Counted from the stretch's first letter, positions 2,397-25,122 are shown. The stretch is 44,954 nucleotides of DNA from Candidatus Nanohaloarchaea archaeon (GCA_042218325.1 JBDGRE010000004.1:1-44954), one strand, 5' to 3'. Made by a program: numbers and translations. Notes: generated by a model from the sequence alone, not told the origin.

Positions 2397-2439
2397 CCGC
2401 CCCCTCAGGGATGTGACCGTTCTGTTCGGGTAATCAGGG
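2397..2439 (+). repeat. att-like site copy 3 (best attR: 16-bp tRNA duplication + arm)
   Basis: CCGCCCCCTCAGGGAT identical to 24976-24991, followed by GTGACCGTTCTGTTCGGGTAATCAGGG. Confidence 0.9.
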
Positions 2440-2442
2440 ATT

Positions 2443-3051: not shown

Positions 3052-3070
3052 ATTTTACACCTTAGTTACT

Positions 3071-3298: not shown

Positions 3299-3299
3299 T

Positions 3300-5589: not shown

Positions 5590-5650
5590 GATTTACCGTT
5601 CTCTATAACTCTTTTTAGTCGTTTGGCTACTATTTCTTCTCCAAATTATC

Positions 5651-7243: not shown

Positions 7244-7300
7244 TAAAGAAAAGTTCGAACAGGTGCTGTAAAAAATGACCGATAGATTAAATCTAAAGAT

Positions 7301-10300: not shown

Positions 10301-10579
10301 TTTGTATCTATCATCTCTCGGTTCACCTGGTTTCCTCCATCTTCTACGATCTTTATTCTCTGGTGTGGCTCCAATCAAAATCCGGACTTTATCCAATTTA
10401 TCTAAACTCTGAGCTATAGAGAAAAATCCCTCTGGGTTGAAGTAACCTGTGGCTATATCGAGTTCCGGCGGCTCCTCCAGTCTATCATCAAGATATTCGA
10501 TATACTCATTTAACGCATTCGCCAAAGTGTTCCCTTCTTGGTTATCTACGAAAGTCGGTTTATCAGATAAATCCGGCAC
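7301..10579 (-). CDS. PLD-nuclease + SNF2-like SF2 helicase fusion
   Basis: PLD LHGKAY...GSSNFT...NLELN; Walker A ADSVGLGKT; DEAH; TATPVNN; QRNGRIDRI. Confidence 0.92.
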   Translation of the reverse strand: MPDLSDKPTFVDNQEGNTLANALNEYIEYLDDRLEEPPELDIATGYFNPEGFFSIAQSLDKLDKVRILIGATPENKDRRRWRKPGEPRDDRYKAEKIEDQLQKLDQDLEEDRDLLGFSEEVESNLKHMLKVLRSDKVEVRRFEEEFLHGKAYLFSNVEEGVIAGSSNFTGGGLNTNLELNLGQYDPRVTREVRDWFEDLWERSEPYDLASLYEERFEPYDPYLIYLRVLWERYKDEIRDEEEQRGDKIELTTFQNDGKFRAKKFLDEHNGVILADSVGLGKTYIAGDLIREAVDEHRQKALVIAPAYLKEGMWEKKRSEWQVQFDTISYAELRNEKQLGGEREYLNRDKEEYQLVIVDEAHAFRNPGTDQAHALRTLLRGDPPKDLVLITATPVNNSLWDLYYQLNYFVKNDAKFANEGIPSLKEKFKEAQSEDPSDLSPEMLFDVLDKTTVRRTRSFVKKNYQNEQIEVNGNTIRIKFPETNPERVDYDFEGIISDEFFEDVADGLAAGEREDPELSLARYMPSKYRKDKEIDHSEIALAGLLRTGLLKRFESSLDAFINTVEGMIDQYNASLELLENGKFPDPNAIDEWIEADSDEAFEEVFGEEEVRELGDNVDKSRLKDDLENDLEILRRWRNRAESVSLEEDCKLEKMKEKLKDIVKEAEEDASGDKEFRQNRKILIFSYFEDTVDRIIDYLETAVESEEELKWYKDRIAGITSNEAKGDASTKKEAVQGFAPESTDSPTGDDKFDILVATDVLGQGANLQDARHVMNYDLPWNPMRVVQRNGRIDRINSPHSQIFAHTFFPEDRLDELLTLENRVRKKITRAAKSVGLENEVIPDSDTVEQNFAEKREQIEKIREEEEEAFDKDKDSATYSGEEYRQELRKGLQEREDDIKSLPWAAGSGYKGENPGYFFAAKVGEDNFFTRFIPKSDGEIVSDTLTCLQNIECDEETDRSLDGESRERIYDAWKKARDDIYEDWQEQTDPRNRQPEIRPLFRQVAEHLRENPPEDISQSELERAIDSVEAPYGRRYERELRDIYEDENLGNMEKSEELLDKIEELGLQPFEPPEPLDPIDKEEIQLICWMAIEEK

Positions 10580-10581
10580 TA

Positions 10582-13500
10582 TTAATTCACCTCAACTTCA
10601 TCAAAGAACTCGAGAGTATCATGCTTTTTCGACTCCCAATACTCAGGAGGATTACTAACCTCATGGAATGTGTCAAATATAGCTTCTAAATGTTCTTTTT
10701 TCAAACCGTATAATTTAGCCACTAAGGCGTCTAACTCTCTTATTTTCTCACGCTCCTCTTCCTCCTCTATTGGGCCACATTCGACTCCAACTCTGTTAGC
10801 AAATTCTTCATACTTATCGCTCTTACATGCTAGTCTCGCGGAGAGCTCTGCTATCTCCTGTTTTATTTCAGAATCATCTCCTGGCCTCGGTACAGGGAAT
10901 GCGTTTAGAATAAAGTAATTCAAGTTTGCTTCAACGAACCTCCGCGCATACCAGTCTAGAGGCACAGAATTAAGTATTCCCATTAGATAAGCCATATCAG
11001 TTTCATCTCCTCTAGGCCAAAGGAAGTAAGGTATTGCGTTAGTTATGAACGTATTTTTAGGAATCAGAGAAGATACTACAGAGCGTAAGTTATCTACTCT
11101 AGCGGCATTCCTGACACAAACCCTGTAGTTTTTACATGGAAGCTTACTTCTACTATGTATCCAATTTTGGGAGAAATGAGATTTCATTTTGCGTGATCTC
11201 TCTCTACTTTCCTGAAGATAATCAAGCATTACATCGGGATCAGACCATCCAAATCTTGAACCTCTGTCCATCACCCATAACTCTGTTCCTGGATAATTGG
11301 TTGAAGAACCATCAAATACAGGCCAGTAATCATCCTCTGGTGGTTCTTCTGTAAGATGGATTAGTCGGCCATAGTCATCATCTGTTTTGTCGGTACTCTC
11401 ATCTAGTTCCCTATAAGGCAAAGCTCGCCATTCGCCTTCTTCATCATAATCAAGTTTGGGAACACTATTCAAAATCTCAAATGCTTCCTCCACCGTTTCC
11501 TTGTTATCCAAAAGGACAGGAAGATTGGGGAATGAGTAAACATTTGTCCACTTTTTGGCATCGCTTACCGGAAAACGGTACGGTTCTTTTCTGTTCTCGT
11601 ATTCCTCTTTACTAGTGTAGGGGCCTCTTATAGGGATCTCCGTATTCTCATCAGGTTCTCTCTTCGTGAATGAGGAAAGTGCTGCTGTATAGACAGGGGT
11701 GATGTCAAAGATCCATCTATCCTTGTTTTTCAATATTGTCAGGTCCTCGATTTCTGCTTTTTCCAGTATTTTTTCTCTAAAGTTCTTTGATCCCTTAGCG
11801 AAGAATGCATTTCTTGGTAGAACAACGCCTATTGATGCTTCGGAAGTCGATAAGCTCCAGAATCGCCAATAGAATGCTTTATACATGTCGGGATCTCCGG
11901 TCCCCATTCCTGGGAATGGACCTCCTTTCAATATTTCCCTTCTACGTTCTTGCTCTTCCTTTTCCTCTTCAAATTTTTCTGCTAAGTCAGGTCTTTCCTT
12001 TTTCAGGTTCTCTATTACCTCTCTTTTCTGACCCTCGGGCATGTCAGTAAGGCCTGGCCGATACCTCGTGAAGAACGCATCTTCTTCTGCTATAGTCTCC
12101 TCCCAAGGAGGGTTTCCTAGGATAACATCGAAGCCTTCGCTTTCTCCTCCGAAGATTTCAGGGAATTTTATAGGGAAGTGAAGTTGGTTTGTGGCTTCTA
12201 ATGTTTCCTGAGCTAAACTATACTCTTGAGTGTCTTTCAGATCCTCTATATTCTTATTTCGTATATCATCTGCATTTATTTCGTTATTTACTCTTGAAGC
12301 AGCTAAGATGTCTAAGAGAGCTTTGAAGTCATCAAGCTGTTTTTCTATCTCAGCTTGGGTTTCTCTTGCTTCTACTACTTCCTCTGCATGAGCCTCAGTG
12401 ATACTTCCCAGTTGCTCGACTTTCTCTTTTGCATCCTTTATGTGGTCTTTCTCCTGCCCATAATAAGCTGCTAGTGTATCATCCTTTATCTTGAGGATTT
12501 CTTGAGCCTCTTCCATTGTCCCTATACCCGACAATGAGTCTCCTGTAACTAGATTGTGATTAAGAAATGTTAGAGGAAGACCAGGGACAAAGGTATGAAT
12601 CCACATTGAAAGCCTTGCTAGCTCTGTAGAAAGAGGATTTAGATCTACGCCGTAGACGCATCTACGAGCTATCTGTCTTCTCAGGAGTTGTGATCTTTCT
12701 ATGTCCGGTATGCTTTCTTCGTTTTCGAAGGGTTCCTTTGCTGCTTGTTGTAGGTTGTCTAGTTCTTCTTCTACTTCTGGAAGAGGTCTTTCAGCAAGAT
12801 AAGCTGAGAATTTAGATTCTATTCTGTCTACTGCACCTACTAGGAAGTGGCCTGATCCCATTGCGATGTCTGCTACTCGAAAGTCAAAGAAGTTTTCTGC
12901 TGCTTCTGCGTCACTCATTTCGTCGAGTTCATCTAAGTGTTGTTCGATTGCAGGATCAAGTGAGTGGTCTAGCAGATGTTCGACGAAAATTGATTTCGTA
13001 TAGTAGGTTCCCGTTGCTTTTCTTTCTCCCGACGTACCGTGGAGATATATCTCTCCCTTTTTAATTTCTGCATTCTCTTCGTCTTCTACAGGGACATATT
13101 GCTCTTCTCCATCACTTTCCTGTATCCCGAGATGCTGGTCGGCAACTGATAACTCAGATTCTAGTAGTCCTTGATAAATTGTTCCGAAATCTCTGACTCC
13201 AATATTTCTGAAGTCTACCGGTCCTTGATATCCTTCACTTGTCTTATCAATCAAGAGATTCGCAAGTATAGGTCCAAATATATCGTTACTCAGCTCTAGC
13301 TCAGCGAGTTTTGCGCCAGCTTCAGAAACATCTGGATCGGAAGACAACAGCTGGCCATCATATTCCGGAACTCCCCATTCACTCTGACCGTCATGAATTG
13401 CATTGGCAAGCCTTGTAATGTCTTCCCAATGGCTTGTTGAACCAGGATCAAACCCAGAGCCTTCAGTTCTTATCTGGTTCAGCTCCTTAGCCTTCTCCTT

Positions 13501-14664
13501 TAGTGAACGTCTGTCATATCTCTCATTTCTTTTCCTAGGCAAGTATCCTTCGTCCTCCGCATAAGCGATGAATAATAATCTGTAAAGAAGGATAATTGAC
13601 ATCTCATAAGTCTCATCTAACTCTTCCCTTGACGGATCCTCTAAGTCTCTTGCATCAGCTATTGCCTCTGCGAGATCTGGAACCACATCATCGTAAATTC
13701 GTTCTCGGAGTCTTCCTCCCAGATCTGTTGCGTAGTCCTCTGAGTTCTGTATTATTTGCTCTAGACTTCCTTCGTCTCGTAATGCTTCTGGAGAGAACAT
13801 TAGTGATAGATAGCCGGCGTCTTCTTCTGGAAGTAGAGCCGAATTAACTTCGACATATGTATCTGTTCTACCTCTCGAACCTAGACCCTTGTCAGGATCG
13901 GTTGTGTAGAGGCGTAAAGTTTTTCCTGAACTGGCGATTACCCAATCGACATCTACGGCATCTTCAGCTTTGTTCAGAGCGTAGTTTACGGGAGTATTGT
14001 TACTGAATCTTTCCTGGCTAATTTCAAAATCTTCATCTTCTTCTAGAAAAATTGCGACAGCAGAGTTCCTATGACCGTCCTTCAGGACAAAACCTTTTCC
14101 GTTCTCAAGTCTCTCTACGTCGTAACCTAATTCTTCGATTAGTTCTCTTCCCTCTATTCCTAGTAGTTCTTTAGATTCTTCTGTCGCTGAACTCCAATCG
14201 CTTCGGTTTTTCACACCGGTCTTCAGTTCGTGTGTCGCTACTAATCCTTGATTTCTTATACCAATGAGTTCGTCATCAATTTGTTCTATAACATCCCAGA
14301 GAAAATCCCTAGCAGCATGTCTATTTGGTTTTTCTAGGGCTTCAGTACATATTCTTGTAATTTGATCTGAATCCACAGATTTCCTTATTGGAGGTTCATC
14401 CCCGCTGGCACCGCCTGTAGGACCACAAATAGCTGCCCGATCACCATAAAGAACTACTAATAGAACTGGTGCAGCTCTTCTACCCTTTCTCTCTTTCCAA
14501 ACCTTGGTAAGTTCTTCTTTACGTGGCTCTTCCTCAGATCTTCCGACAGCAACTTCAAGGGCGCTTGAACCCTCTCCTATATAGAAACCTGTCGTATCAA
14601 TATTTCCTTTGCTTACTTCCCATTCTCTCCACGAATCTTGGAATTCAGATAGAAATTCACTCAC
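10582..14664 (-). CDS. Type IIG/Eco57I-like adenine DNA methyltransferase with target-recognition domain
   Basis: RKATGTYYT, DIAMGSGHFL (motif I), YGVDLN, DVILGNPPW (motif IV); C-terminal TRD-like region; 2 bp from the helicase gene. Confidence 0.9.
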   Translation of the reverse strand: MSEFLSEFQDSWREWEVSKGNIDTTGFYIGEGSSALEVAVGRSEEEPRKEELTKVWKERKGRRAAPVLLVVLYGDRAAICGPTGGASGDEPPIRKSVDSDQITRICTEALEKPNRHAARDFLWDVIEQIDDELIGIRNQGLVATHELKTGVKNRSDWSSATEESKELLGIEGRELIEELGYDVERLENGKGFVLKDGHRNSAVAIFLEEDEDFEISQERFSNNTPVNYALNKAEDAVDVDWVIASSGKTLRLYTTDPDKGLGSRGRTDTYVEVNSALLPEEDAGYLSLMFSPEALRDEGSLEQIIQNSEDYATDLGGRLRERIYDDVVPDLAEAIADARDLEDPSREELDETYEMSIILLYRLLFIAYAEDEGYLPRKRNERYDRRSLKEKAKELNQIRTEGSGFDPGSTSHWEDITRLANAIHDGQSEWGVPEYDGQLLSSDPDVSEAGAKLAELELSNDIFGPILANLLIDKTSEGYQGPVDFRNIGVRDFGTIYQGLLESELSVADQHLGIQESDGEEQYVPVEDEENAEIKKGEIYLHGTSGERKATGTYYTKSIFVEHLLDHSLDPAIEQHLDELDEMSDAEAAENFFDFRVADIAMGSGHFLVGAVDRIESKFSAYLAERPLPEVEEELDNLQQAAKEPFENEESIPDIERSQLLRRQIARRCVYGVDLNPLSTELARLSMWIHTFVPGLPLTFLNHNLVTGDSLSGIGTMEEAQEILKIKDDTLAAYYGQEKDHIKDAKEKVEQLGSITEAHAEEVVEARETQAEIEKQLDDFKALLDILAASRVNNEINADDIRNKNIEDLKDTQEYSLAQETLEATNQLHFPIKFPEIFGGESEGFDVILGNPPWEETIAEEDAFFTRYRPGLTDMPEGQKREVIENLKKERPDLAEKFEEEKEEQERRREILKGGPFPGMGTGDPDMYKAFYWRFWSLSTSEASIGVVLPRNAFFAKGSKNFREKILEKAEIEDLTILKNKDRWIFDITPVYTAALSSFTKREPDENTEIPIRGPYTSKEEYENRKEPYRFPVSDAKKWTNVYSFPNLPVLLDNKETVEEAFEILNSVPKLDYDEEGEWRALPYRELDESTDKTDDDYGRLIHLTEEPPEDDYWPVFDGSSTNYPGTELWVMDRGSRFGWSDPDVMLDYLQESRERSRKMKSHFSQNWIHSRSKLPCKNYRVCVRNAARVDNLRSVVSSLIPKNTFITNAIPYFLWPRGDETDMAYLMGILNSVPLDWYARRFVEANLNYFILNAFPVPRPGDDSEIKQEIAELSARLACKSDKYEEFANRVGVECGPIEEEEEREKIRELDALVAKLYGLKKEHLEAIFDTFHEVSNPPEYWESKKHDTLEFFDEVEVN

Positions 14665-14777
14665 GTTGATAGACCCTTTATTTTTACGATCTCGGAGTGA
14701 TTTTTATTTTAGTTTCTATTAGTAGAAAGCCAAAAGTTATAGAGTTTTTTCTTAGAATAGAGTATACAAGAAGCATA

Positions 14778-15068
14778 ATGTCTGTAAAACACCAAGAATC
14801 ACGTAAGGAAGCTGAGAAATTGAGTAGTAACGAGAAATATAGTAAAGCAGCTGATAAGTTCCGAGAAGCTGCAGACCATGCAGAGAGTGATGAAGATAAA
14901 ATATATTATTTCTCCAAAGCTCTTTACGAGGAAGGAGTTCTAGCTAAAAATGAGGGCAGAGCTAAACTTGCTAGACGGAAACTTCAGAACGCTTTAGATA
15001 ATTTCACGTATCTAGAAGTTACAGAAGAGATAAATAAAGCAGAAAAAGCCCTTGAAGAGATTCAATAA
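14778..15068 (+). CDS. Small TPR-like helical protein
   Basis: ATG at 14778; KEAEKL...AADKFREAADHAESD; paralogue of 2443..2811. Confidence 0.7.
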   Translation: MSVKHQESRKEAEKLSSNEKYSKAADKFREAADHAESDEDKIYYFSKALYEEGVLAKNEGRAKLARRKLQNALDNFTYLEVTEEINKAEKALEEIQ

Positions 15069-15096
15069 AGCGAACTTCATTTTTTGTAGTAAAGAG

Positions 15097-15366
15097 TCAG
15101 GAAAATTCCTGCCAGAGTTCTTTACCTTTCTCAGCAATCCTGTAATACCGATTTCGGTTGTCTTCCGGATTCATAATCTCCACTAATTCCTCCTCTTTTA
15201 GGTCAGTAATTCGTCTAGAAACTGTTTCACGTTGAACCTTAATCTCTGATGCTATATCCGTAGGCCTCAAAGCCTCTCCCTCCTTATAGAGTAGTTCTAT
15301 AATCTTCCTTCTAGTCGGTGAGCGATCGATGAATGCCTTTAGCCGATAGAGTTCCTCCTCTTCCAT
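15097..15366 (-). CDS. ArsR/MarR-type winged-HTH regulator
   Basis: SPTRRKIIELL...RPTDIASEI...TVSRRITDLKEEELVE...RYYRI. Confidence 0.85.
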   Translation of the reverse strand: MEEEELYRLKAFIDRSPTRRKIIELLYKEGEALRPTDIASEIKVQRETVSRRITDLKEEELVEIMNPEDNRNRYYRIAEKGKELWQEFS

Positions 15367-15456
15367 GCAACATTTGCGTGCCGAGTTGGATAAGGGAGAG
15401 AATGTAGGGTTGCGTGATTGCTTTAATAATACTTTGAAAGCAAATATTGCTCAAGG

Positions 15457-16554
15457 ATGGATGGAGAAGGCAAAATATTCCTGATACGAGACGGCGAACT
15501 CCGAGAAATGAACGAAGATACGTACGAGGAAGAGTCTCTACTTCAAGAGCAAATTGCGGAGTACAGAAGCCTGCTCGCTGGCGAACAAGTAGACCCTGAA
15601 AATCCTCGTAGATGGCTACTTATCGAACGTGAAATCAGCGTACCCGACAGCGAAGAAAGCGAGGGTAGATGGTCTCTGGACCACTTATTCATCGATCAAG
15701 AGGGAGTTCCAACACTGGTGGAAGTCAAACGTAGCCAGGACACCAGGAGCAGGAGAAGGGTTGTGGCCCAGATGCTTGACTATGCGGCAAACTCGGCAGA
15801 ATACTGGACTCCTGACGGTATAAGAGAACGATTCAAAGTTCAATGCGAGTCGCAGGGAGAAGATCCAGAAGACCAGCTTGCCGAATTCTTACCCGATGAT
15901 AAAACTCCGGAAGAGTTCTGGGAAGAAGTCAAGACCAATCTTGCAGCCGATAAGATACGAATGCTTTTCGTTGCCGACGAAATACCTTCTGAACTCCGCA
16001 GCATAGTAGAGTTCCTGAACCGTGAAATGGAGACAGCGGAAGTACTGGCTGTGGAAATCAAGCACTATACGGGAGAAGGAGAACAGGCGCTAGTACCGAG
16101 AGTTATCGGCCAGACTGAACAGGCCAGGCAAAAGAAGCAGTCAAGCTCACGTCGTAAATGGGATGAAGAATCCTTCTTTGAAGACGCCAGAAAAAAGCTA
16201 TCAGAAGAGGAGTTGACGAAGATTAAGAAGTTATACCAGTTCAGCAGGGAAAATGCCGACACAATTGACTGGGGAACAGGCTCTCAGAACGGCTCTTTCA
16301 ACCCAAAATGGGAAGAACTCTCCGATCGCTCAATTTTCACCGTCTACAGCAATGGGAATATTACACTTAACTTCGGGTGGCTTGTGGAGGATAAGGCTGT
16401 CGAGTTCAAGCAGGAATTTGCTGAAGAGCTAGGTAATGCAGAAATCGATATTGAGGTTCCTGACAGCCTCGACGATTCAATGTCATATCCTATTGACGAA
16501 GATATTGACGGGCTTATCCAATGTCTGGAAAACACACTAAATAGACATTGTTAG
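15457..16554 (+). CDS. NucS/DUF91-like PD-(D/E)XK endonuclease-domain protein
   Basis: EESLLQ, IERE, SLDHLFID, LVEVKR, QMLDYA motifs. Confidence 0.8.
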   Translation: MDGEGKIFLIRDGELREMNEDTYEEESLLQEQIAEYRSLLAGEQVDPENPRRWLLIEREISVPDSEESEGRWSLDHLFIDQEGVPTLVEVKRSQDTRSRRRVVAQMLDYAANSAEYWTPDGIRERFKVQCESQGEDPEDQLAEFLPDDKTPEEFWEEVKTNLAADKIRMLFVADEIPSELRSIVEFLNREMETAEVLAVEIKHYTGEGEQALVPRVIGQTEQARQKKQSSSRRKWDEESFFEDARKKLSEEELTKIKKLYQFSRENADTIDWGTGSQNGSFNPKWEELSDRSIFTVYSNGNITLNFGWLVEDKAVEFKQEFAEELGNAEIDIEVPDSLDDSMSYPIDEDIDGLIQCLENTLNRHC

Positions 16555-18107
16555 AGCCCTCGCTCCTCTCTCATCCGCTCTCTAAACCTCTTCTTGAACG
16601 GGTTTTCAGGTTCTTTGTTCCGCCCTATATCGCTCGTCAGGTCGTTATCAGATTTCTGAGAGGCAAACAGTTCTCCCATTTCGATGTCCAGGACTGCTGG
16701 TTTTCCTGCTCTCATTTCCTCGGCTCCGTGTAGTGCGAAGCAGAGCGAGTCAGCATGGTCAGGGCTCTTGGATGGATCGACTATCCGCATCTTACCTCTA
16801 GAGGTATACTCATGCTTCATAGAAAGTAGCTGGTGCTCCAGTTCATCTGAGTCCGGAATACTTATCCTGCCATTCTCGAATAGTTCTCGAATCCTCCAGT
16901 AGTACTGGGTCTTCCTGTTCAGGAATCTCTCCTTCTCACGGGTCGGCTGCTTATGCACTTTCAGAAGTTCAACGTTGTGTCCTCGCTCCTTCAGGGCGTC
17001 TCCCACACCTTTTCCTATACCTATAGCATCTATCATTATACGTTCATCCTTCTCCTTCAAGGATTCAACATTGGAAACCGTCTGCATCGTGTCCTCCTCC
17101 CTCCAAGACTCCTGCCATACCACGCGGTGACGAACAGAATCATCGGTGGAAATCCTTTCCACCTTTGTAAGCACATTCATGTCCTCCCCGCCCTCAGCAA
17201 CATCCAGACCATACACAGTACTACTTGATGCATCCTGTTCTGGATTGAACTTCCGTTTTATGGCGTCTTCGACCCAGTCCGCTCGAAGTAGCCCGCCATC
17301 TATTTCATCAGGGTAACGTGCTTCATACCAGATCTCGAATTCCGCCTTCGACATCTCCTCACGCTGCTCCTCAATAAAATCCCTTTCCAGCCGTCCTTCC
17401 TGGACAGCATCTTCCCAGCCAATCCTGCGGTTATACCATCTATCCACGTCTTTCTTCTCATACATGAATCCGCGTTCATCAGGAAAGGTAGGGTTGGATA
17501 CTAGCAGTAGCTGGGCGTTCGAACGCTCGCCCACCATACGCAGAATCTTGTTTCTAATCAGCTCCGAAGGTATCCTTTCAGCCTCGTCAACGATGACTAT
17601 GCTTCCGCCTTTACCCAGTAGTGACCGTCCTCCCGAGTCTACAGATGCGGTAAGCACCGAGATTTCCGACCCGTTCTCAAAGGTTATCTTCTCCTTGCTA
17701 AGCTCTTTCCTCAGGTCCTTCACGGATCTACCTCCTGTAGCGGACAGCGATTCCACTATTGTCTCGTGGTCAGAGAGATGGTCTAGTATGTAGTCCATGA
17801 TTATCTTGGCGTGGTCCTTTGTCGGGCCGATAAGCCTTATCTTCTCTCCTGGACGCATCACTGCAGACAGTATCGCACCTATCGCAAGGGCAAACGACTT
17901 TCCGGACCGTGTGGCAGCCCAGATAAGCTGGCGTTTCGGATGCTTCTTCAACAGGGAAAGCACTATCTCCGCCTGATAATCGGTAAGTTCCAGAGGATTA
18001 CCCTCCTCGTCCACGAACAGGGTCTTACAAAAATGCTGGACGCCTTTTTCTGTACCCAGAACCTCTTTCAACTCCTCTTTACTCAAATCCTCTAAGTCCT
18101 TCATCAT
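16551..18107 (-). CDS. terL: Terminase large subunit
   Basis: LTDYQ, Walker A ATRSGKS, Walker B IVIVDEAE, coupling motif SNP, RNase H-like nuclease GLDVAEGGED / IDAIGIGKGVGD / SPDHADSL. Confidence 0.92.
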   Translation of the reverse strand: MMKDLEDLSKEELKEVLGTEKGVQHFCKTLFVDEEGNPLELTDYQAEIVLSLLKKHPKRQLIWAATRSGKSFALAIGAILSAVMRPGEKIRLIGPTKDHAKIIMDYILDHLSDHETIVESLSATGGRSVKDLRKELSKEKITFENGSEISVLTASVDSGGRSLLGKGGSIVIVDEAERIPSELIRNKILRMVGERSNAQLLLVSNPTFPDERGFMYEKKDVDRWYNRRIGWEDAVQEGRLERDFIEEQREEMSKAEFEIWYEARYPDEIDGGLLRADWVEDAIKRKFNPEQDASSSTVYGLDVAEGGEDMNVLTKVERISTDDSVRHRVVWQESWREEDTMQTVSNVESLKEKDERIMIDAIGIGKGVGDALKERGHNVELLKVHKQPTREKERFLNRKTQYYWRIRELFENGRISIPDSDELEHQLLSMKHEYTSRGKMRIVDPSKSPDHADSLCFALHGAEEMRAGKPAVLDIEMGELFASQKSDNDLTSDIGRNKEPENPFKKRFRERMREERGL

Positions 18108-18559
18108 TGTTCTTCCTCCTCGGCCTCTTCCTCCAGTTCGTTTAACGCCTCCACTATAGGCGTCGAGGTAAGCTCTATCTCCTTCTTCTCAGGCTCTTTC
18201 TCCTGAATACCTCGATCTTCAGCCCATGAATTAAGCTTTGAAATAGCCTTTATAGCACCTCTGTAGTCCCCCTCCTCCATCATATTGTTCAGAGCGGCGC
18301 GGAAACCCAGCTCGGAGATGATATTCAGTTCCTTGCCCTGGTTCTCTCCGATGTATTCTTTGAGTCTGTCAATGTCTTGGGAGATCTGTCCCTGGCTGCA
18401 GTCGTATCTCTGGGCGAGTTTAGTCTGGTTAATATTCTGGAAGGTTCCAGCCTTTAACGCCATCTGGAGTATTTCGGCTCTGCGTTCCGTCCAGTGGTAG
18501 TTTAACGGTTTCTTGTCTCCTGGTACAACGACGTTATAGTAGTCCACATCATTAGCCAT
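18104..18559 (-). CDS. HTH protein, probable terminase small subunit
   Basis: RRAEIL...NQTKLAQRYDCSQGQISQDI HTH; immediately upstream of terL with a 4-bp overlap. Confidence 0.65.
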   Translation of the reverse strand: MANDVDYYNVVVPGDKKPLNYHWTERRAEILQMALKAGTFQNINQTKLAQRYDCSQGQISQDIDRLKEYIGENQGKELNIISELGFRAALNNMMEEGDYRGAIKAISKLNSWAEDRGIQEKEPEKKEIELTSTPIVEALNELEEEAEEEEQ

Positions 18560-19523
18560 TATTACCAGCCTCCAAGACCTCTTCCTTCAGGGTTTCAGCT
18601 ATAGCCTCCATCTGCTTCGGCATAACAGCATTCCCCAGCTGATTCCACCTCTCCGTGAAGCTTCCCGACAGCTCAAAATCGTCAGGGAACGAACATATCC
18701 GCTTCAGCTCAGGAATAGTAAGGTATCGATCCTCCTCAGGATGTAGCAGTCCAGCACATCCAGGACTGAACGTCTTGGTAACGGTCCGACAGGGCGCGGA
18801 CCACTTGACTCGGGCGAGGTTGAAGTAGCTGCCATTCGGATGATAATCTCTACCTCGCTCACATTGTCCCATACGACGGGCAAGCTTCCTGGCACGGGCT
18901 TTAGGACGCCTTATCTCACTGGCTTTAGGCACGCCCTTCAAGGCAGCTTTAACCGTTGGAACAGTGCCATCGGGCTCGGGAAACACGGGTTCAGCATCAA
19001 TATCTTCTCTTACTCCTATCCAGAACAGGCGTTCACGTGACTGCGGGACACCGTAGTACTTGGCATTCAGCTTCTTGCACCGCACCTGGTAGCCGAGACC
19101 TTTCAGCTCCGTCATTATCTCCTTGAACCTCCCCTTCATCTCGCCCTGGACCAGACCAGTAACATTCTCCATTACCAAGACTTTCGGCTGGAGTTCATCC
19201 GCTATCCTGACATACTCCTTGAAAAGATCGTTTCTATCATCGTCAACCTCCCGCTTGCCTGAAAGCGAGAAGCCCTGGCATGGCGGGCTGCCATCCAGAA
19301 CATCCAGCTCGCCTTCCTCCAATCCCGTGGCCTCCTTAATTTCTTCTCCCGTAACCGTGGAAATGTCTCTGTTCCATACCTCAGTGTCGAAGTTCTCGGA
19401 CAGGGTGTCGGTGGCGGTATCGTTCCAGTCGATGGCCAGAAGTTCTTCGAAGCCAGCATGTTCGTACCCGAGACTGCTTCCTCCGCATCCCGCGAACGTC
19501 GAGATTACCGTTGGAGCTGTCAT
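18552..19523 (-). CDS. C5-cytosine DNA methyltransferase
   Basis: FAGCGG, GSPPCQGFS, ENV, QSRERL, QLGNAV. Start placed at MTAPTV. Confidence 0.95.
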   Translation of the reverse strand: MTAPTVISTFAGCGGSSLGYEHAGFEELLAIDWNDTATDTLSENFDTEVWNRDISTVTGEEIKEATGLEEGELDVLDGSPPCQGFSLSGKREVDDDRNDLFKEYVRIADELQPKVLVMENVTGLVQGEMKGRFKEIMTELKGLGYQVRCKKLNAKYYGVPQSRERLFWIGVREDIDAEPVFPEPDGTVPTVKAALKGVPKASEIRRPKARARKLARRMGQCERGRDYHPNGSYFNLARVKWSAPCRTVTKTFSPGCAGLLHPEEDRYLTIPELKRICSFPDDFELSGSFTERWNQLGNAVMPKQMEAIAETLKEEVLEAGNNG

Positions 19524-19525
19524 GG

Positions 19526-20038
19526 TCACCACTCGTACCCGCAATTAGGGCATTCATTCTCGTACTCCATCTCTTCCTCGTCGAATTCCTCCTCGTCAAT
19601 ATCGTCGGATTTTAACTCCTCAGCGATGTCTATATAGTCGTCTATCTCCTCCTGACCGAAGCCTGTCGGAAGTTCCTGGTCCTTGCTGGTGAGTTCCTCC
19701 AGTTCCTGTGCCAGTAGCTCGTCGTTCCAAGAGCTCTCCGAGGTTCTGTTGTCGGCAATACGAGCACCCTTGACTTCCGCCTCGGTGAGGTCGTCCCTCT
19801 GTATGACGGGGACTTTCTCCAGCCCTAGTTTCTTGGCTGCCTGTAACCTGCCGTGACCTTTGATAACTTCGTAGTCCTCGGTAACGACTAATGGAACGTC
19901 CCAGCCGTAGTTCTTGATGCTGCTGGCAATCCTGTCAATCTGTTCCTCAGGGTGTTCCTTCGGGTTATTCACGTAGGGCAACAGTTCATCGACGGATACG
20001 AGCTGAACTTCCTCCTCAAGTACCACGTCCGGACTCAT
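19526..20038 (-). CDS. ParB/Srx-like N-terminal domain protein with C-terminal CPxCG
   Basis: PYVNNPKEH, IASSIKNYGW, GHGRLQAA, IADNR; typical viral ParB-MTase module upstream of a terminase. Confidence 0.88.
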   Translation of the reverse strand: MSPDVVLEEEVQLVSVDELLPYVNNPKEHPEEQIDRIASSIKNYGWDVPLVVTEDYEVIKGHGRLQAAKKLGLEKVPVIQRDDLTEAEVKGARIADNRTSESSWNDELLAQELEELTSKDQELPTGFGQEEIDDYIDIAEELKSDDIDEEEFDEEEMEYENECPNCGYEW

Positions 20039-20229
20039 TTCTCGCCTCCAGAGCTTACCGTTTTAACTTTCAGCTCCAGTTTTGCCCCACAGTTGCCGCA
20101 ATCTCCGTATGCTGCCTCGGGTAAGGTGAGTCCGAATCCACACTCAGGGCAAGGTATACCGGGGATTTCATGGTGGTCGTCTAACCATATATCTTTGAGA
20201 TCCTTAGTTTCCAGTTTCATTTTTAGCAC
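20035..20229 (-). CDS. Small Zn-finger protein
   Basis: CPECG...CGNCG; 4-bp overlap with the ParB gene. Confidence 0.7.
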   Translation of the reverse strand: MLKMKLETKDLKDIWLDDHHEIPGIPCPECGFGLTLPEAAYGDCGNCGAKLELKVKTVSSGGEK

Positions 20230-20232
20230 CTC

Positions 20233-20439
20233 CTAGTATCTCATCTCCATACTATCTATAATCTTATCTACAGCTTCTAGTCTGAGGAAGCGTTCCAGTC
20301 TAACAATCTCGGAGCTGTGGCATATTGGACATTTGGAAACTACATTCCCTACAGAGTCCTTCTTCCACCGGACTCTTTTCCGAGGAATAGCAGTTCCACA
20401 TCCCAGGCAAATCTTAGGGAAAGTCTCCGTATCTATCAT
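20233..20439 (-). CDS. Small Zn-finger protein
   Basis: CLGCG...CPICH; tightly packed in the operon. Confidence 0.7.
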   Translation of the reverse strand: MIDTETFPKICLGCGTAIPRKRVRWKKDSVGNVVSKCPICHSSEIVRLERFLRLEAVDKIIDSMEMRY

Positions 20440-20615
20440 TCTTTCACCTCAACAACGTGGTAGGCTAGGCCATCTTCAATTACCGCTTCCGTCCTGAGAT
20501 GTTCCATCTGCTGACAGATTTTGACGATTTTGATCCTTTCAAGACACACTTCATCTATAAGACGGGGAAGTGGCGTCTGACCGTTTTCTTCAACGTAATT
20601 ATATACAGGGTTCAA
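20436..20615 (-). CDS. Small hypothetical protein (59 aa, not in ORF track)
   Basis: TTG start overlaps the helicase stop and the TGA overlaps the next ATG; MNPVYNYVEENGQTPLPRLIDEV... Confidence 0.6.
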   Translation of the reverse strand: MNPVYNYVEENGQTPLPRLIDEVCLERIKIVKICQQMEHLRTEAVIEDGLAYHVVEVKE

Positions 20616-22621
20616 AGCCGCTTCACCTTACCGGGCTTAGTATGAAAGATTTCTCCCTCTTGTTTCAACATATCCAGGTAATCTTGGGTCTTCTCAGGGT
20701 CTAAATCGTGCTCCTCCTGTATCTCTTCTATAATATACTGTTCTTCTTCCCCTTCTCCTTCCTCAGGGACGAGTTCCTTAACTTTCTGGAGCACTCCTGT
20801 AGGAACTGATGTACTTGATGTACCTGATGTACTTTCTGCACTGTCAGGTACATTAGGTACACTAAGTACATCGGCTTTCACATACTGATCGAACTTCTGG
20901 AGATCCGAAACCCGAAACATAGTCTCTCCTTCAACATCAGATATTTCTATCCCTAGCAAACTCCGTAGCATTTCTCTTTTGCTTCCCGCAGACCCCTCTA
21001 TATGGGTTCTAATCCGTGCAAATTTCCTGTACTGCTTCGCCATATCGTCTGTAACTATATCATCCTTTATTGCCAAGAAGCTCTCTCGCACGTGGTTTAA
21101 CGGATAGAACTCGCCCTCATCTAGAGGATTTTTCTGATGTTTAGATATAACACCGTACGCGAACAATCTCATGTAGACGGGTTCCAAACCCGCCAAATCC
21201 TTCCTTGCCACCGATTCGAGCTTGGACTGGTCTATCATGCTACTGATGTTTCGGAAGCTTTCACGATTTTCGTCTGTCAGACGAGAGAAATAATCGTCTG
21301 CAGTCTCCAGTATTTCCTCAACATCATACTCTTCTGCCACCAAACTGGACAGGTGGTCGATACAGGCGTTACGAAGTGCATGACCTCGTGCGTGTTTCCC
21401 TGCCTTCAGGTGTTCAAGCCAAAACTTTCGAACCTCGGTCAAGGCTATGTCTTCATCAGCTCGTTTCTTGATCTCTTCTTCGTAACGCTCTGGAAAGCCC
21501 TGGTTCAACCACTTCTGTACTTCTTCCTCTTTTACAAGCCTGCTGAACGGTTCGGCTGCTAGCTGGAATATTGTCTTAACGACCTTCCCTGCATTCTGGT
21601 GCCTCTCACGGTCTCCTGCCTTATCTTGAACAGGTTCAAAATCCTCACCGTACTGTATCAGACCGATTCTACTTCCTAGAGCTCCATAGTTGTCGGAGAG
21701 CTTTGAGAGGTTATCTCGGAAGCGTGTAACGAGATCGTCGCTGGTTTCTGACTCTTTAGGGTTCGACATGAAGACCAGAGGCGCCCAGGTCCTCGTAGCG
21801 ACTCCTTGTCCCTGTGCTGCTTTGTAATTTCCGTCTCTCATCAGAGGTAGGAAGCCTCGTGATAGAAGGTTTCCATCGCTATTTCCCTCATTCAGTTCGT
21901 CTATTCCGAGTGCTTCCGTCATATCGTGTAGCGTTCCTGTCTCGTTTTTCTCGGCACCGGACCAGCCTAATACTTTTGCTGGTGTAGCGTAGTCCACCTT
22001 GACGCCGATACGTCCGAAGGTTGTTGACTTCCCGACGTAAGGGTTTGTATAGATTATCGCATGAGGGTTAGAGGGCATAGCCTGCTCGGGAACTATGGTA
22101 TCTTGGTCATATCTGAAGAGGTAAGGCCTCAGGGAGAACAGAAGCCTGTCGTCTAGCTCTACCGCTCCGGCCCCTTTCAGATAAATGTCAATGAGTTCCC
22201 GTATTTCCTCCCCATCCAGTTCCGACAAGAAATCTCGCACATCTGACGGGTTTGCCGGGTAGCCCAGTGTGAAGCATTCAGGAGCTATCGGAGAATCCTC
22301 ACCTTCCAGAATTTTCTTAGCCACAAATTCTCCTCTTTCATCCAACTCCCAGTCATCATAGTCAGCCTTTTCAAGGAAAAGTTTCTGTTCTCCCGTTCTC
22401 ACAGGCCTGTTGGAATCCACGAAGAGTAACTGCGGTGGATGACCGCGTCCTTTTTCCCATTGATAAACATCGAACAGCTCCTCGTAGTCTGTGTACCCGT
22501 CCCGCTCCTTCATCTGTTCATACACCTTGCCCTTCACATTAACAGGGACTTCAGTGTTCAACTCCACTTCCTGCTCCTTGAAAACAAATTCAGTCACCGT
22601 TATCTCCCCCATGCGATTCAT
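20612..22621 (-). CDS. Divergent MCM-like AAA+ replicative helicase
   Basis: Walker A NPYVGKST, Walker B GIDE, sensor-1 VFMSNP, ALGSRI (cf. MCM ALLSRF), C-terminal winged helix EGEIFHTKPGKVKRL. Start may be the GTG at 22597. Confidence 0.72.
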   Translation of the reverse strand: MNRMGEITVTEFVFKEQEVELNTEVPVNVKGKVYEQMKERDGYTDYEELFDVYQWEKGRGHPPQLLFVDSNRPVRTGEQKLFLEKADYDDWELDERGEFVAKKILEGEDSPIAPECFTLGYPANPSDVRDFLSELDGEEIRELIDIYLKGAGAVELDDRLLFSLRPYLFRYDQDTIVPEQAMPSNPHAIIYTNPYVGKSTTFGRIGVKVDYATPAKVLGWSGAEKNETGTLHDMTEALGIDELNEGNSDGNLLSRGFLPLMRDGNYKAAQGQGVATRTWAPLVFMSNPKESETSDDLVTRFRDNLSKLSDNYGALGSRIGLIQYGEDFEPVQDKAGDRERHQNAGKVVKTIFQLAAEPFSRLVKEEEVQKWLNQGFPERYEEEIKKRADEDIALTEVRKFWLEHLKAGKHARGHALRNACIDHLSSLVAEEYDVEEILETADDYFSRLTDENRESFRNISSMIDQSKLESVARKDLAGLEPVYMRLFAYGVISKHQKNPLDEGEFYPLNHVRESFLAIKDDIVTDDMAKQYRKFARIRTHIEGSAGSKREMLRSLLGIEISDVEGETMFRVSDLQKFDQYVKADVLSVPNVPDSAESTSGTSSTSVPTGVLQKVKELVPEEGEGEEEQYIIEEIQEEHDLDPEKTQDYLDMLKQEGEIFHTKPGKVKRL
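20806..20874. repeat. Iteron-like array: three direct + three inverted 9-bp repeats (candidate origin)
   Basis: CTGATGTAC-TTGATGTAC-CTGATGTAC, 15-bp spacer, GTACATTAG-GTACACTAA-GTACATCGG. Confidence 0.7.
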
Positions 22622-22784
22622 CCTGTTTCAGGTCTACATCATCGCGAACTCGTGAAAACTGGTACCGATACGCCGGAGGTAGCTGTCGTATTAACTCTAT
22701 ATCGACCTCCTTCGCCTCTAGAACCAGCTGGGCGACCTCCGACTGTTCTCGGAAAATCCCTGCAGATATCCCTGCGTCAGTCAT
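22590..22784 (-). CDS. Small hypothetical protein (64 aa)
   Basis: GGAGG SD-like sequence upstream; overlaps both neighbours in the operon. Confidence 0.55.
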   Translation of the reverse strand: MTDAGISAGIFREQSEVAQLVLEAKEVDIELIRQLPPAYRYQFSRVRDDVDLKQDESHGGDNGD

Positions 22785-22941
22785 TAACTCCTCCCTCTTC
22801 GAGTCTTTGAACAGCTTGAACGCAGCCTTGGCGGGCTACTTCCGCAATGCTGAGGCCGTTCCTGTCGGCCACTCGTCGCAGCCTCGATTTGAACTCGTTG
22901 TCGGTTTTGAATTTGACGGTGGCCGTTCTTCGTCCTGACAT
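22777..22941 (-). CDS. Ribbon-helix-helix (CopG-like) regulator, 54 aa (not in ORF track)
   Basis: MSGRRTATVKFKTDNEFKSRLRRVADRNGLSIAEVARQGC has an RHH strand-helix-helix pattern; first gene of the leftward operon. Confidence 0.75.
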   Translation of the reverse strand: MSGRRTATVKFKTDNEFKSRLRRVADRNGLSIAEVARQGCVQAVQRLEEGGVND

Positions 22942-22954
22942 GTGCCCAGCTTGG

Positions 22955-22996
22955 GTTGTAATTTATAAAGATTACAACTGTAATCAGTACTATTAC
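22955..22996. promoter_or_regulatory. Bidirectional promoter with palindromic operators
   Basis: GTTGTAAT/ATTACAAC inverted repeat around the self-complementary TTTATAAA, plus a second GTAAT...ATTAC pair, between divergent RHH and wHTH genes. Confidence 0.7.
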
Positions 22997-23632
22997 ATGG
23001 TTCTAGACTCTCATCTGGCATACGATATCTGCCGGATACTACATGAAGAGGAAGATTATCCTGCAAATATAGCGAAGAGATTAGGTTATGGTAAAGATGA
23101 TTCTGGCAGAAGAAAGACGCACAGCGTAAGAAACGCTATAAGCGATCTTGTGGAGAACTCCCTATTAGAAACGACTAGAAAAGGAAAATACAATCGACAG
23201 TACTATCAACTTGACATCGAGGGATTGATGTCTAGATGGGCCGAACTCTGGTTTGAACGGTATCAGGCCGCTCAAGAAGTATATGATTCAGATCTTGAGG
23301 AATATGAGAACCCTGAAGAGTTACTATCCGGCCTCGGGGACGACTTCGAGTCCTTTCTACGTAACAGATATATCCCGGTTTACCTGGGCAGAGTAGAAGA
23401 CTCTAACCTCGGAAATATGCTCGGAGAGGATTTCATTGATAACATGACTGCCTGCACCAGCTACATCTCTATGTACAAAGGGGCTCCCGATGCGGATGAG
23501 GAACCACGCAACTGGATGGAAGAAGCGCAGAGAAAGCTGATGGAGTGGCACTCAGCAGGAAGAGAACCACGAAAATCTGTTGCATTACAGGTAATACCTA
23601 CTTGGCGAGAACTAGGATTTTCGAGAGATTAA
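22997..23632 (+). CDS. Winged-HTH repressor-like protein
   Basis: ATG at 22997; YPANIAKRLG...SVRNAISDLVENSLL...RQYYQL wHTH; divergent from the replication operon. Confidence 0.75.
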   Translation: MVLDSHLAYDICRILHEEEDYPANIAKRLGYGKDDSGRRKTHSVRNAISDLVENSLLETTRKGKYNRQYYQLDIEGLMSRWAELWFERYQAAQEVYDSDLEEYENPEELLSGLGDDFESFLRNRYIPVYLGRVEDSNLGNMLGEDFIDNMTACTSYISMYKGAPDADEEPRNWMEEAQRKLMEWHSAGREPRKSVALQVIPTWRELGFSRD

Positions 23633-23640
23633 GAGAACTA

Positions 23641-24915
23641 TTATTCTTTAGCCATCTGCCGCTGTATCTCTTCCTGGATGAATTCCTGCGGGTTCTCCAG
23701 TATGTCAATGTTCTGCTCTATCTTCTCCAGCTTCTGCTCATCAACCTGCGAGAGGCGATCTGCTATACTTTTCACTTTCTTCATCTTCTCGGATTTCGCC
23801 ACGTTAAGCGGTCGGTGGCATTTTTTACACTCAATTCTTTCGGGATCGTTCCTAGCGTTGCAGTTCTCGCATACGATCCATTTCTGGCTTTCCTCTGACT
23901 CGCCTTTGAAGCGTTCCTTTACCATGTTCCGCAGCTTCTCGTTGTTGATGGAGATATAGGACTGCGCCTGAGAACTTCCTGGTTGCCATCGTGCGAAGTT
24001 GTTCAGCTGTTCATATCCTACCTCGGGAGCTAAGCGTGTCAGCATCGACTTACGTAGATATTTGGCCTTTACATCCCGTTCGATGTCGGAGTTCTGAACT
24101 GCCTTCTTGAACGCCTTGTTCATGGTCCTGTACCCTACAGCTGCCGCCTCATCGGCCTCGAAGCTGTCACAGGACTCCATGTTTCCGTTGATGTGGGCGG
24201 TCTGGCTTTCACCGCAGTTTTTGCAGTCTATTCCTCCGCTCTTGACCCAGAGAGGTTCCTCGCTCGTAGTGGAGAACGGATCATCTACTGCAGGATGCAT
24301 CTTCAGGTATTCTCGCAGGTAGTTGACGCCCTCGCTGTGTAGCTCCATGGTCTGTGATCTGTGGTTCTTGTTTCCTCGGACGTAGATTGTCTCCTCTGTG
24401 AGGTCAACATCCTTCAACTTGCCTTGCAGTAGCTCTCCTGGAGTGGCTGCAACTTCGTACATTACCCGTATATACGCCTTTGTCCTGATAGTCTGGGCAC
24501 TGTTTACTATGGACTGCACTTCTGGAGGGCTCAGTATCATGTCGGGTTCGACTGTGGTTCCGCTTGCTCCTCCTGCTGAAACTGTGAAGGAGTCGGTGAG
24601 TTCGTAATATTCTCCTCCTTTATAGACTCCATAGAATTTCTTCACGGATTTGAGCCAGGATTTCATCGTGGAAGGGTTATCTTTCTCCTTCTGGATGTTG
24701 TTGGCAAGGTCTAGAATTTCATCCTTGGACGGTTCTGAAAGCTGGAAACCGTCGGGAGCACATGTCTGTAGAATGTTGTTGAGTCGGGAGAGGTAGTCGT
24801 ATGTGGTTGAATTTGCTATGTCGGCTTCTCTCCTGAACTGCTTCAGCGCCTCCCAGTTCTCCTCGGATATGTCGTCCTGGATGTTTTCCAGGTATTGGTC
24901 GGGGTCGTCGCCCAT
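23641..24915 (-). CDS. int: Tyrosine recombinase/integrase (atypical active site, Zn-finger insertion, C-terminal Zn ribbon)
   Basis: LSPPEVQSIV, MYEVAATPGELL (box I), GNK, KYLRKS (box II), RWQPGS...SY, CENC...CKKC; adjacent to the tRNA. Confidence 0.85.
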   Translation of the reverse strand: MGDDPDQYLENIQDDISEENWEALKQFRREADIANSTTYDYLSRLNNILQTCAPDGFQLSEPSKDEILDLANNIQKEKDNPSTMKSWLKSVKKFYGVYKGGEYYELTDSFTVSAGGASGTTVEPDMILSPPEVQSIVNSAQTIRTKAYIRVMYEVAATPGELLQGKLKDVDLTEETIYVRGNKNHRSQTMELHSEGVNYLREYLKMHPAVDDPFSTTSEEPLWVKSGGIDCKNCGESQTAHINGNMESCDSFEADEAAAVGYRTMNKAFKKAVQNSDIERDVKAKYLRKSMLTRLAPEVGYEQLNNFARWQPGSSQAQSYISINNEKLRNMVKERFKGESEESQKWIVCENCNARNDPERIECKKCHRPLNVAKSEKMKKVKSIADRLSQVDEQKLEKIEQNIDILENPQEFIQEEIQRQMAKE

Positions 24916-24947
24916 ATAAGGTATATGTGCATCTAGGCTTTTTATTT

Positions 24948-24991
24948 ATCCCCATTAGGGTGAACTGAAATGGGGCCGCCCCCTCAGGGAT
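24948..24991 (-). repeat. attL: tRNA 3' core plus inverted copy of the att arm
   Basis: Minus strand TTCAGTTCACCCTAATGGGGAT resembles the plus-strand arms (ACAGTTCAGG; AGGCTAATAGGGAT; TTCTGTTC). Confidence 0.7.
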
Positions 24992-25122
24992 TTGAACCCT
25001 GGATCTGCACCTATCTGCACCCAACTTCTGCAAGCCGCTGGAGGGCGGAACGCGGTTTCTGGTGATCGGACTTCCAGAAGTTCGGTCCGCAAGGTGCCGT
25101 CTTTCCACTAGACCAAAGGGGC
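24977..25122 (-). tRNA. tRNA-Arg(GCG) with a 74-nt intron at 37/38 (25013-25086)
   Basis: Acceptor GCCCCTT/AGGGGGC, D-arm GTCT/AGAC, anticodon stem GCACC/GGTGC with spliced loop TTGCGGA, T-arm CAGGG-TTCAAAT-CCCTG; BHB-like junction; CCA not encoded. Confidence 0.92.

Follow-up and report, generated by a model that had tools for sequence, protein, structure and literature searches.

A tRNA-integrated archaeal element with its own terminase and no recognizable head genes: a possible satellite of tailed viruses

RESULTS AND DISCUSSION

An integrated element whose replication operon ends at TerL

The DNA examined here, called the window, is the whole of a 44,954-nt contig (JBDGRE010000004.1 of assembly GCA_042218325.1, Candidatus Nanohaloarchaea archaeon) from a 1.07-Mb genome that is in 35 contigs and 96% complete. 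It holds an integrated element of 22.6 kb, bounded by direct repeats (att), in which an integrase gene and an operon ending with the gene for the large terminase subunit (TerL) adjoin a block of defense genes. The original prediction had proposed a satellite that brings its own packaging motor and had given it the range 15457 to 24991, which proved too narrow. One repeat copy, at 24976 to 24995, is the 3' end of tRNA-Arg(GCG), i.e., the integration target, and a second copy lies at 2397; therefore, the element spans 2397 to 24995 of the window. The two repeats are identical at 19/20 nucleotides and are separated by 22,579 nt. With its default settings ARAGORN found no tRNA in the window, and both ARAGORN with introns and Rfam detected the tRNA-Arg. 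The GC content is about 0.40 at 1 to 15 kb of the window, 0.45 to 0.53 at 15 to 25 kb, and 0.54 to 0.61 further on. The sequencing runs containing the element are salt-lake metagenomes, and these, together with the size and completeness of the genome, are consistent with the DPANN host that had been suggested and with one that is nanohaloarchaeon-like. The boundaries and the integrase-to-TerL part are as follows.

24977..25122, minus strand: tRNA-Arg(GCG) with a 74-nt intron (Rfam RF00005, 48.2 bits; ARAGORN with introns)
24976..24995, no strand: attL, 20-nt direct repeat (repeat search, 95% identity to 2397-2416)
23641..24915, minus strand: tyrosine integrase, 424 aa (PF00589, 1.2e-11)
22847..23632, plus strand: divergent 261-aa open reading frame (ORF), orf261; no family match, likely start near 22998
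22942..22997, no strand: 56-bp divergent control region, a palindrome around a TATA-like core, read from the sequence
22777..22941, minus strand: 54-aa ORF, first gene of the operon (phrog_19583, function not assigned, 1.9e-5; no Pfam match)
22590..22784, minus strand: 64-aa ORF, orf64a; no family
20612..22621, minus strand: 669-aa divergent MCM-like AAA+ helicase, on remote evidence; C-terminal MCM-type winged helix
20035..20615, minus strand: three small ORFs of 59, 68, and 64 aa; no family, CxxC pairs in two, weak LysW zinc ribbon (0.009)
19526..20038, minus strand: ParB N-domain protein (PF02195, 3.3e-9; phrog_620, 5.4e-49)
18552..19544, minus strand: C5 cytosine DNA methyltransferase (PF00145, 6e-63; phmmer, 1e-107 to the methyltransferase of viral contig L013)
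18104..18559, minus strand: 151-aa helix-turn-helix (HTH) protein resembling a small terminase subunit (TerS-like; phrog_15023, function not assigned, 1.5e-42; HTH_11, 1.3e-4)
16551..18107, minus strand: TerL (phrog_2, 4.8e-33; Terminase_6N, 5.3e-7; Terminase_6C, 21.9 bits against a cut-off of 22.6)
2397..2416, no strand: attR, 20-nt direct repeat (repeat search, same repeat family as 24976-24995)

The positions of the ORFs and their junctions confirm a tightly coupled operon that ends at TerL. Neighboring genes overlap by 4 to 32 nt or are separated by 3-nt gaps, all 12 genes are intact with none broken, and the stop codon of TerL shares 4 bp with that of a convergent 365-aa gene (15457-16554). 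The predicted set of regulator, helicase, ParB, C5-methyltransferase, TerS-like protein, and TerL was present at its places. The first operon gene was found where it had been reported, and its proposed identity as a ribbon-helix-helix protein stayed unconfirmed, with a sequence pattern and no Pfam match behind it. The divergent orf261 probably encodes, as read from its sequence, a winged-HTH (wHTH) regulator; it has no similarity to the regulators of two other loci of the phylum (G051:C101 and G049:C40). The gap between it and the operon (22942-22997) is a candidate operator and bidirectional promoter, and a sigma-70 promoter and terminator scan of the sequence gave results at chance level. 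A tandem-repeat scan brought out nothing remarkable. The integrase is 46% identical to one on contig C5 of the same genome and 62% identical to that of G051:C101.

An intact terminase and no head or tail genes

TerL is, as judged from its sequence, a real and intact terminase. In an alignment of 24 sequences, G68 and K69 (Walker A), D173 (Walker B), and the nuclease aspartates D301, D359, D449, and D452 are invariant, and E174 is nearly so. A profile of the protein matched solved ATPase domains (4znj, 1.5e-10; T4 gp17) and nuclease domains (8dkr, 2e-10; Sf6 gp2); the Terminase_6N match lies above its cut-off and that of Terminase_6C just below. Thus, the retention of ATPase and nuclease motifs that had been claimed is borne out. 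The protein also has a long C-terminal tail ending in an NPF-like motif, and because relatives that are 49 to 52% identical share this tail, TerL was not clipped at the junction with the cargo.

Proteins of phiH, PhiCh1, HCTV-2 (gene 15), and HHTV-2 share about 40% identity with the TerS-like protein, whose gene lies directly upstream of terL with a 4-nt overlap, the same placement as in viral loci L003, L004, and L014. Its structure model (pLDDT 72) matched solely unnamed homologues of haloarchaeal viruses in BFVD. A small HTH gene adjoining terL is therefore what stands of the earlier assignment, and no named TerS was matched. The predicted complex of TerL with the TerS-like protein scored 0.55, against 0.00 for the best control, with contact agreement between runs of at least 74% and a partner pLDDT of at least 68. 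The mark for such scores was reached by 58/80 solved complexes and 2/110 mismatches, and scores at or under 0.60 that still reached it came from 7/80 solved complexes and from both passing mismatches. Given this calibration, the models give weak support to binding of TerL by the TerS-like protein.

No portal, capsid, protease, or tail family matched within the element in a Pfam scan of 22 ORFs or in a PHROGs scan of 16 ORFs and then 4 further window ORFs. In addition, 19 proteins of relatives (portals, proteases, and major capsid proteins, 10 of them portals) were compared with the window by tblastn; no match had an E value below 0.08, and no remnant of a head gene came up. Tail genes were covered by the family scans. 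The claim that no portal, capsid, or tail gene lies between the att sites is upheld by these searches. A complete virus whose structural genes are unrecognizable, lie elsewhere in the genome, or fall in its unassembled part would account for the same picture. The 35-contig assembly, the many archaeal virus genes without annotation, and the seven ORFs without a family between the att sites (orf122, orf123, orf261, orf64a, and the three small ORFs) speak for such a virus. However, the att repeats bound the element, all ORFs of more than 300 aa are confidently nonstructural, and the unassigned ORFs of 59 to 261 aa are too few and too small for a portal, an HK97 capsid, and a tail. Furthermore, the 19 structural queries had no match in the 1.07-Mb assembly, and 45 ORFs of its seven low-GC contigs contained no head, packaging, or tail family. 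We therefore regard a complete virus as very improbable.

A satellite-like reading of the element

From its gene content, the element appears to be a chimera of an integrase and MCM-like-helicase backbone, the first four morphogenesis genes of a tailed virus, and a defense island. Phage-inducible chromosomal islands (PICIs) typically carry TerS (or Rpp) without TerL, which the helper supplies, and capsid-forming PICIs (cf-PICIs) carry the whole head module. The window element has none of the capsid, portal, protease, and connector that mark a cf-PICI, and its intact TerL sets it apart from a PICI with TerS or Rpp alone. We prefer to read it as a satellite-like hitchhiker that would package itself with its own terminase into helper capsids, because self-packaging into helper procapsids best fits the TerS-TerL pair, and we assign this reading a probability of about 0.45. 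The original description holds for the genes present, for TerL as the last gene of the operon, for its intact motifs, and for the lack of head and tail genes; the word satellite itself is our interpretation of them.

Under this satellite-like reading, the element would reside in the tRNA-Arg gene under a divergent regulator switch. Infection by a tailed helper, or derepression, would lead the integrase to excise a 22.6-kb circle; the helicase would recruit the host replisome, and the methylase would mark the element's DNA. The TerS-like protein would then select the element's own DNA, and TerL would dock on the helper portal and pump the element into helper procapsids. The defense genes would thereby spread at the helper's expense. 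In a bolder extension, the capsids used would not have to come from a virus of the host's own lineage, because the TerS-like protein shows ~40% identity to haloarchaeal myovirus proteins and nanohaloarchaea live attached to haloarchaea.

The element may belong to an unrecognized class of archaeal satellites, i.e., integrative plasmid-like elements with a captured TerS and TerL that would use helper procapsids and ferry defense islands. It would be the first of them in DPANN, and its lineage would persist and diverge in several salt lakes.

Relatives of TerL and the possibility of a viral relic

The main rival is that the element is a relic of a temperate tailed virus, in which a provirus of about 35 to 40 kb lost everything past terL and gained a defense island, with TerS and TerL as roleless leftovers. 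We consider such a relic unlikely. The closest TerL proteins are metagenome sequences that are 46 to 52% identical. In IMG/VR, a single-protein scan gave no match and an alignment search found none closer than 41%; an alignment search of genome contigs returned one weak bacterial match (26%). In L009 and L013, ParB, C5-methylase, a small protein, and TerL follow in the order seen in the window and are succeeded by portal, protease, and major capsid protein.

Several results weigh against the satellite-like reading. In all 12 IMG/VR loci annotated by family scan (TerL 35 to 43% identical), a portal follows terL, and in most of them a head-morphogenesis protein, a protease, and a major capsid protein come next. 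In L085 (47%), the closest locus whose surroundings are available, a portal of 774 aa lies 46 nt past terL. A portal detectable by phmmer lies downstream in 80 of the 111 TerL loci with at least 2.5 kb of downstream sequence, where the locus sets overlap (e.g., L006 is L087). Ten of the 31 portal-negative loci were inspected, and 4 of 11 downstream ORFs scanned from nine loci match other portal families. In a quick tree, the window TerL falls in an eight-row clade with the portal-bearing L085 (SH-aLRT 97). Because the scanned relatives have a portal after terL, the window TerL is best derived, on sequence grounds, from a complete tailed virus, and deletion is the simplest history. There is no second full-length example of the architecture. 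The TerS-like protein had no PDB sequence match to a solved or named TerS and no Foldseek match in the PDB at E 0.001, and in HCTV-2 its homologue lies 2.4 kb upstream of terL; for that reason we infer a TerS role from position and the HTH. The same searches of the assembly that found no structural genes also found no helper virus, and excision, replication, packaging, and a helper are all deduced from the gene content. The authors who described the closest published case, NitKor-E1, termed its terminase "enigmatic, likely a relic" (Krupovic et al. 2019, PMC6563490), a reading that a relic here would parallel. The limits on the selection signal that are given with it below belong on the same side.

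A viral relic gains further from the GC content, which is lower in the cargo (0.34 to 0.47) than in the integrase-to-TerL part (0.43 to 0.54). On the other hand, no fragment of a head gene is left, all the operon genes are intact, and neither of two viral collections (IMG/VR scan and INPHARED) yielded the helicase backbone. The variants described below add a diverged variant that keeps the same junction, and a synonymous bias that would be unexpected for a gene without function. The original prediction had named a portal in close relatives as the observation that would speak for simple deletion; distant relatives (at most 47% identical) do have one, and a variant that is about 87 to 95% identical bridges the portal-less junction.

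Among the 70 genomes of the phylum used for comparison (about 0.5 to 1.7 Mb), TerL occurs in 4, with protein and profile searches in agreement. In two of these loci (G067:C1 and G016:C10) a portal gene comes after terL, and the window element has none. On a 4.9-kb contig, G051:C101 (L192), the integrase, 62% identical to that of the window, is separated by 1.2 kb from a TerL that belongs to another clade. This TerL (phrog_2, 2.9e-32) is 26% identical to the window TerL. Beyond it lie a gene of 149 aa and one in convergent orientation, and the remaining 1.3 kb of the contig contain no portal. The contig may represent a second terminase-only element. Separately, in a 4.7-kb metagenome contig (L106, TerL 36% identical), a convergent SNF2-type helicase gene stands in place of a portal after terL.

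Variants in other metagenomes and selection on TerL

The probable source run, assembled independently, yielded one 25,013-nt contig without differences over 5450 to 25013, and another run of the same study contained identical fragments of cargo and backbone. Pieces about 87 to 95% identical to the integrase, ParB, methylase, TerS-like, and TerL genes came from runs of two other studies (X3 and X5). From the cargo, X3 also had pieces of the genes for the PDC-S11-like protein (15431-15906) and the PLD-SNF2 protein (7469-7909). One X3 contig (depth 10.3, roughly 16393-16664) bridges the junction between TerL and the PDC-S11-like gene with both stop codons unchanged; its differences run from 16511 to 16558, 106 to 130 letters from the contig ends. 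These contigs bear on the possibility that an assembly error joined a virus fragment to a defense island at the terL end. The window is a metagenome-assembled contig with a GC shift near the junction, as such an error would leave, but the independent assembly is identical across the junction and a contig of a different study bridges it. An assembly chimera is thus extremely improbable.

Among the 40 listed of 1,055 differences, which come from short metagenome contigs at 85% likeness, 22 lie in TerL, namely 18 synonymous and 4 nonsynonymous ones, where chance would make 28% synonymous (binomial P = 2e-7). Elsewhere, 2/8 listed differences in the tail of the PDC-S11-like gene and 4/8 in the beta-CASP gene are synonymous. 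The listed indels are in frame or compensated, and none falls in TerL except for a possible 75-nt in-frame skip in the interdomain linker. The integrase region occurs in X3 in two or more variants, so the TerL pieces and the junction contig possibly come from different elements. Given these caveats, purifying selection on TerL, which the original prediction had proposed to test, is indicated for this subset of short contigs. Because the portal-less junction is conserved and the changes lean to synonymous ones, the terminase seems to be kept by selection, and the data favor a maintained gene over a freshly deleted remnant.

At 90% identity, clusters of TerL, helicase, TerS-like protein, ParB, PDC-S11-like protein, and integrase contained only this same element. 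Four further runs (X4, X6, X7, and X8) held small shares of it. Contigs of X5 give almost no cover at 5450 to 16100 and those of X3 none in several cargo bins, a pattern that is not readable as absence of the cargo. No RNA runs were among the listed runs containing the element.

A helicase backbone shared with capsid-less integrated elements

The 669-aa protein matched no Pfam, PHROG, NCBIfam, or PDB profile. Its last ~70 residues (about 599 to 668) match the C termini of host proteins of about 670 aa in more than 20 genomes, one of which is a bona fide MCM (PF00493, 2e-93, and MCM_WH_arc). Alignment of its profile with host MCMs by hhalign gave 89.5% probability (E 1.9e-6) from Walker A through sensor 1. 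The AlphaFold model was poor (pLDDT 53, ATPase core below 30), and a fold search with it (VIA) ranked MCMs on top with middling figures (3f8t_A, Z 7.4, rmsd 7.8, 222 residues aligned). As a lead, ESM Atlas returned PF27228 clusters and MCM/BrxL-like models at TM 0.36 to 0.48, with neighbors labeled mostly viral. The family comprises 481 representative clusters, and its ATPase part has no Pfam model (relatives P0036 to P0184). Among 26 members sampled, 13 have an N-terminal DnaG-type primase and 1 has a Prim-Pol. Taken together, the C-terminal match, the hhalign result, and the primase fusions within the family indicate that this protein is, as far as its sequence goes, a replicative MCM-like helicase module. 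The label MCM-like that it had been given accordingly stands on remote evidence, and no family model supports it.

No member of the helicase family was found in the IMG/VR scan, INPHARED, or PLSDB. Among the 70 phylum genomes, full-length relatives occur only in G049, at two places, and on contig C5 of the window's own genome. All three (C5, G049:C40, and G049:C33) lie beside integrases and have no head genes in the available sequence, and the operon of G049:C40 terminates at the helicase. Thus, the backbone looks nonviral and of a type shared with other capsid-less integrated elements.

The C5 locus (1-17000, L186) is a second integrative element, with a GC content of about 0.40 and no terminase. 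Besides its integrase, which is the one 46% identical to that of the window, it carries a MarR-type regulator, a 751-aa helicase paralogue (29%), a clamp-loader small subunit, a phrog_24372 protein, and a second integrase, as well as metabolic cargo (NUDIX, HAD, methyltransferase, and EamA).

Defense cargo and other roles for a terminase

The cargo occupies about 13 to 14 kb of the element beyond TerL and contains the following genes.

15457..16554, plus strand: PDC-S11-like protein, 365 aa, convergent to TerL (PADLOC PDC-S11, 2e-16)
15097..15366, minus strand: wHTH regulator, 89 aa (HTH_24, 1e-6, and other HTH families)
10582..14664, minus strand: type IIG restriction-modification enzyme, DrmMI-like (PADLOC REase_MTase_IIG, 2.3e-231; Eco57I, 1.2e-19)
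7301..10579, minus strand: PLD nuclease and SNF2 helicase (PADLOC HKD+Snf2, 3.3e-55, and DrmD, 3e-36; PLDc_2, SNF2-rel_dom, Helicase_C)
5651..7243, minus strand: beta-CASP nuclease of metallo-beta-lactamase fold (Lactamase_B_2, 2e-13; RNase J-type beta-CASP, 2.4e-29, below cut-off)
3760..5589, minus strand: GmrSD-type restriction endonuclease (GmrSD_N, 7.6e-37; GmrSD_C, 1.1e-19; HEC-06, 4.7e-69)

Three of these genes, the type IIG/DrmMI-like, PLD-SNF2 (DrmD-like), and beta-CASP genes, stand in a row at 5651 to 14664. By gene content, this row is reminiscent of a DISARM-type system, partial or variant, in which DrmA and DrmB are lacking.

This neighborhood raises the alternative that the terminase was retained for another role, either antiviral, by competing for or cutting invader DNA or procapsids, or in processing the element's own replication products. 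TerL abuts the five defense-type genes (PDC-S11-like, type IIG restriction-modification, PLD-SNF2, beta-CASP nuclease, and GmrSD), and purifying selection indicates a function and not which one. A bacterial defense that targets packaging is described for TERi, where it acts via a small protein and not a terminase. Opposed to another role are the place of TerL and the TerS-like gene in the replication operon, apart from the cargo, the fact that no PADLOC model matched TerL, and the outcome of literature searches, in which no precedent for a terminase as a defense protein was found. We judge a different role improbable.

Comparison with known elements

The closest published case is NitKor-E1, a cryptic integrated element of Ca. 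Nitrosopumilus koreensis AR1 (Krupovic et al. 2019, PMC6563490). As far as its published description goes, it too is integrated, has a tyrosine integrase, and carries TerS directly upstream of TerL. In both elements the TerS-TerL pair is the only set of packaging or structural genes, and the remainder is cargo typical of mobile genetic elements, which in NitKor-E1 includes a restriction endonuclease. Compared by description, NitKor-E1 differs in belonging to another phylum and in having VapBC, and no replication helicase, ParB, or C5-methylase is named for it in that text. The window element shows a first hint of selection and a conserved junction, where the authors who described NitKor-E1 saw a likely relic. 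By the marks of this type (integrated, with a tyrosine integrase and a sole TerS-TerL pair), the two fall together.

With PICIs and cf-PICIs the window element shares an integrase, switch-like regulators, a replication module, packaging gene(s), defense cargo, and site-specific integration. It differs from them in combining a TerS-like protein with TerL without any head gene, in being archaeal, and in being larger (22.6 kb).

Within archaea, Zhou et al. (2025, 10.1101/2025.02.15.638363) name pSSVx and pSSVi as the sole satellites described before their work, and they describe satellites solely for spindle-shaped viruses. The same preprint reports tailed nanohaloarchaeal viruses and TerL transfer between haloarchaeal and nanohaloarchaeal viruses. 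These plasmid-derived satellites, i.e., pSSVx, pSSVi, and the SRCEs, some of which are assigned to nanohaloarchaea, resemble the window element in joining a nonviral-looking replication backbone to an incomplete morphogenesis module that includes a packaging-type ATPase. In contrast, the helper of the window element would be a tailed and not a spindle-shaped virus; the element is integrated and 22.6 kb long, whereas those satellites are free circles of 2.7 to 9 kb, and it carries a terminase where the others are reported to have an AAA+ ATPase or a major capsid protein. A 2026 preprint describes, for a tailed virus of Asgard archaea, a putative satellite that is plasmid-like and has no terminase.

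Among tailed archaeal viruses, the IMG/VR contigs L009 and L013 share the gene order through TerL, and HCTV-2 (KC292028) has the TerS-like homologue as gene 15. These genomes continue with portal/MuF, protease, and major capsid protein, whereas in the window element the series breaks off at TerL, next to a convergent defense gene. Apart from NitKor-E1, which is classed as a cryptic element, literature searches of main texts found no terminase-only archaeal satellite.

If the satellite-like reading is true, carriage of a whole packaging motor without a shell would be a parasitic strategy distinct from those of PICIs (TerS only) and cf-PICIs (whole head). It would also explain the enigmatic terminase of NitKor-E1 and show how large defense islands (type IIG restriction-modification, PLD-SNF2, GmrSD, and others) move among DPANN cells with reduced genomes. 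With near variants present in other lakes, the question is open to testing.

Further observations at the integration site

The intron of the tRNA-Arg(GCG) gene corresponds to 25012 to 25085 of the window. Intron-less forms of the same tRNA, or forms with introns of other sizes, occur in community contigs of four runs, with joints from 25011-25018 to 25082-25087. Loose contig ends at 24977 (X1, X3, and X5), where the tRNA is joined to other sequence, were considered as empty integration sites and rejected, as this tRNA is common to many community members.

Three 42-nt att-like copies that are 71 to 74% alike lie at 1-42, 654-695, and 2398-2439 of the window, and each ends in the tRNA 3' motif. 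They suggest that earlier insertions at the same tRNA-Arg built up a tandem array. Two of the copies flank a HEAT-repeat gene (709-2259), and the contig start falls inside one copy. Nearby, a 112-aa ORF at 245-583 has a close paralogue on contig C23 of the same genome (17002-17439; phmmer, 9e-40).

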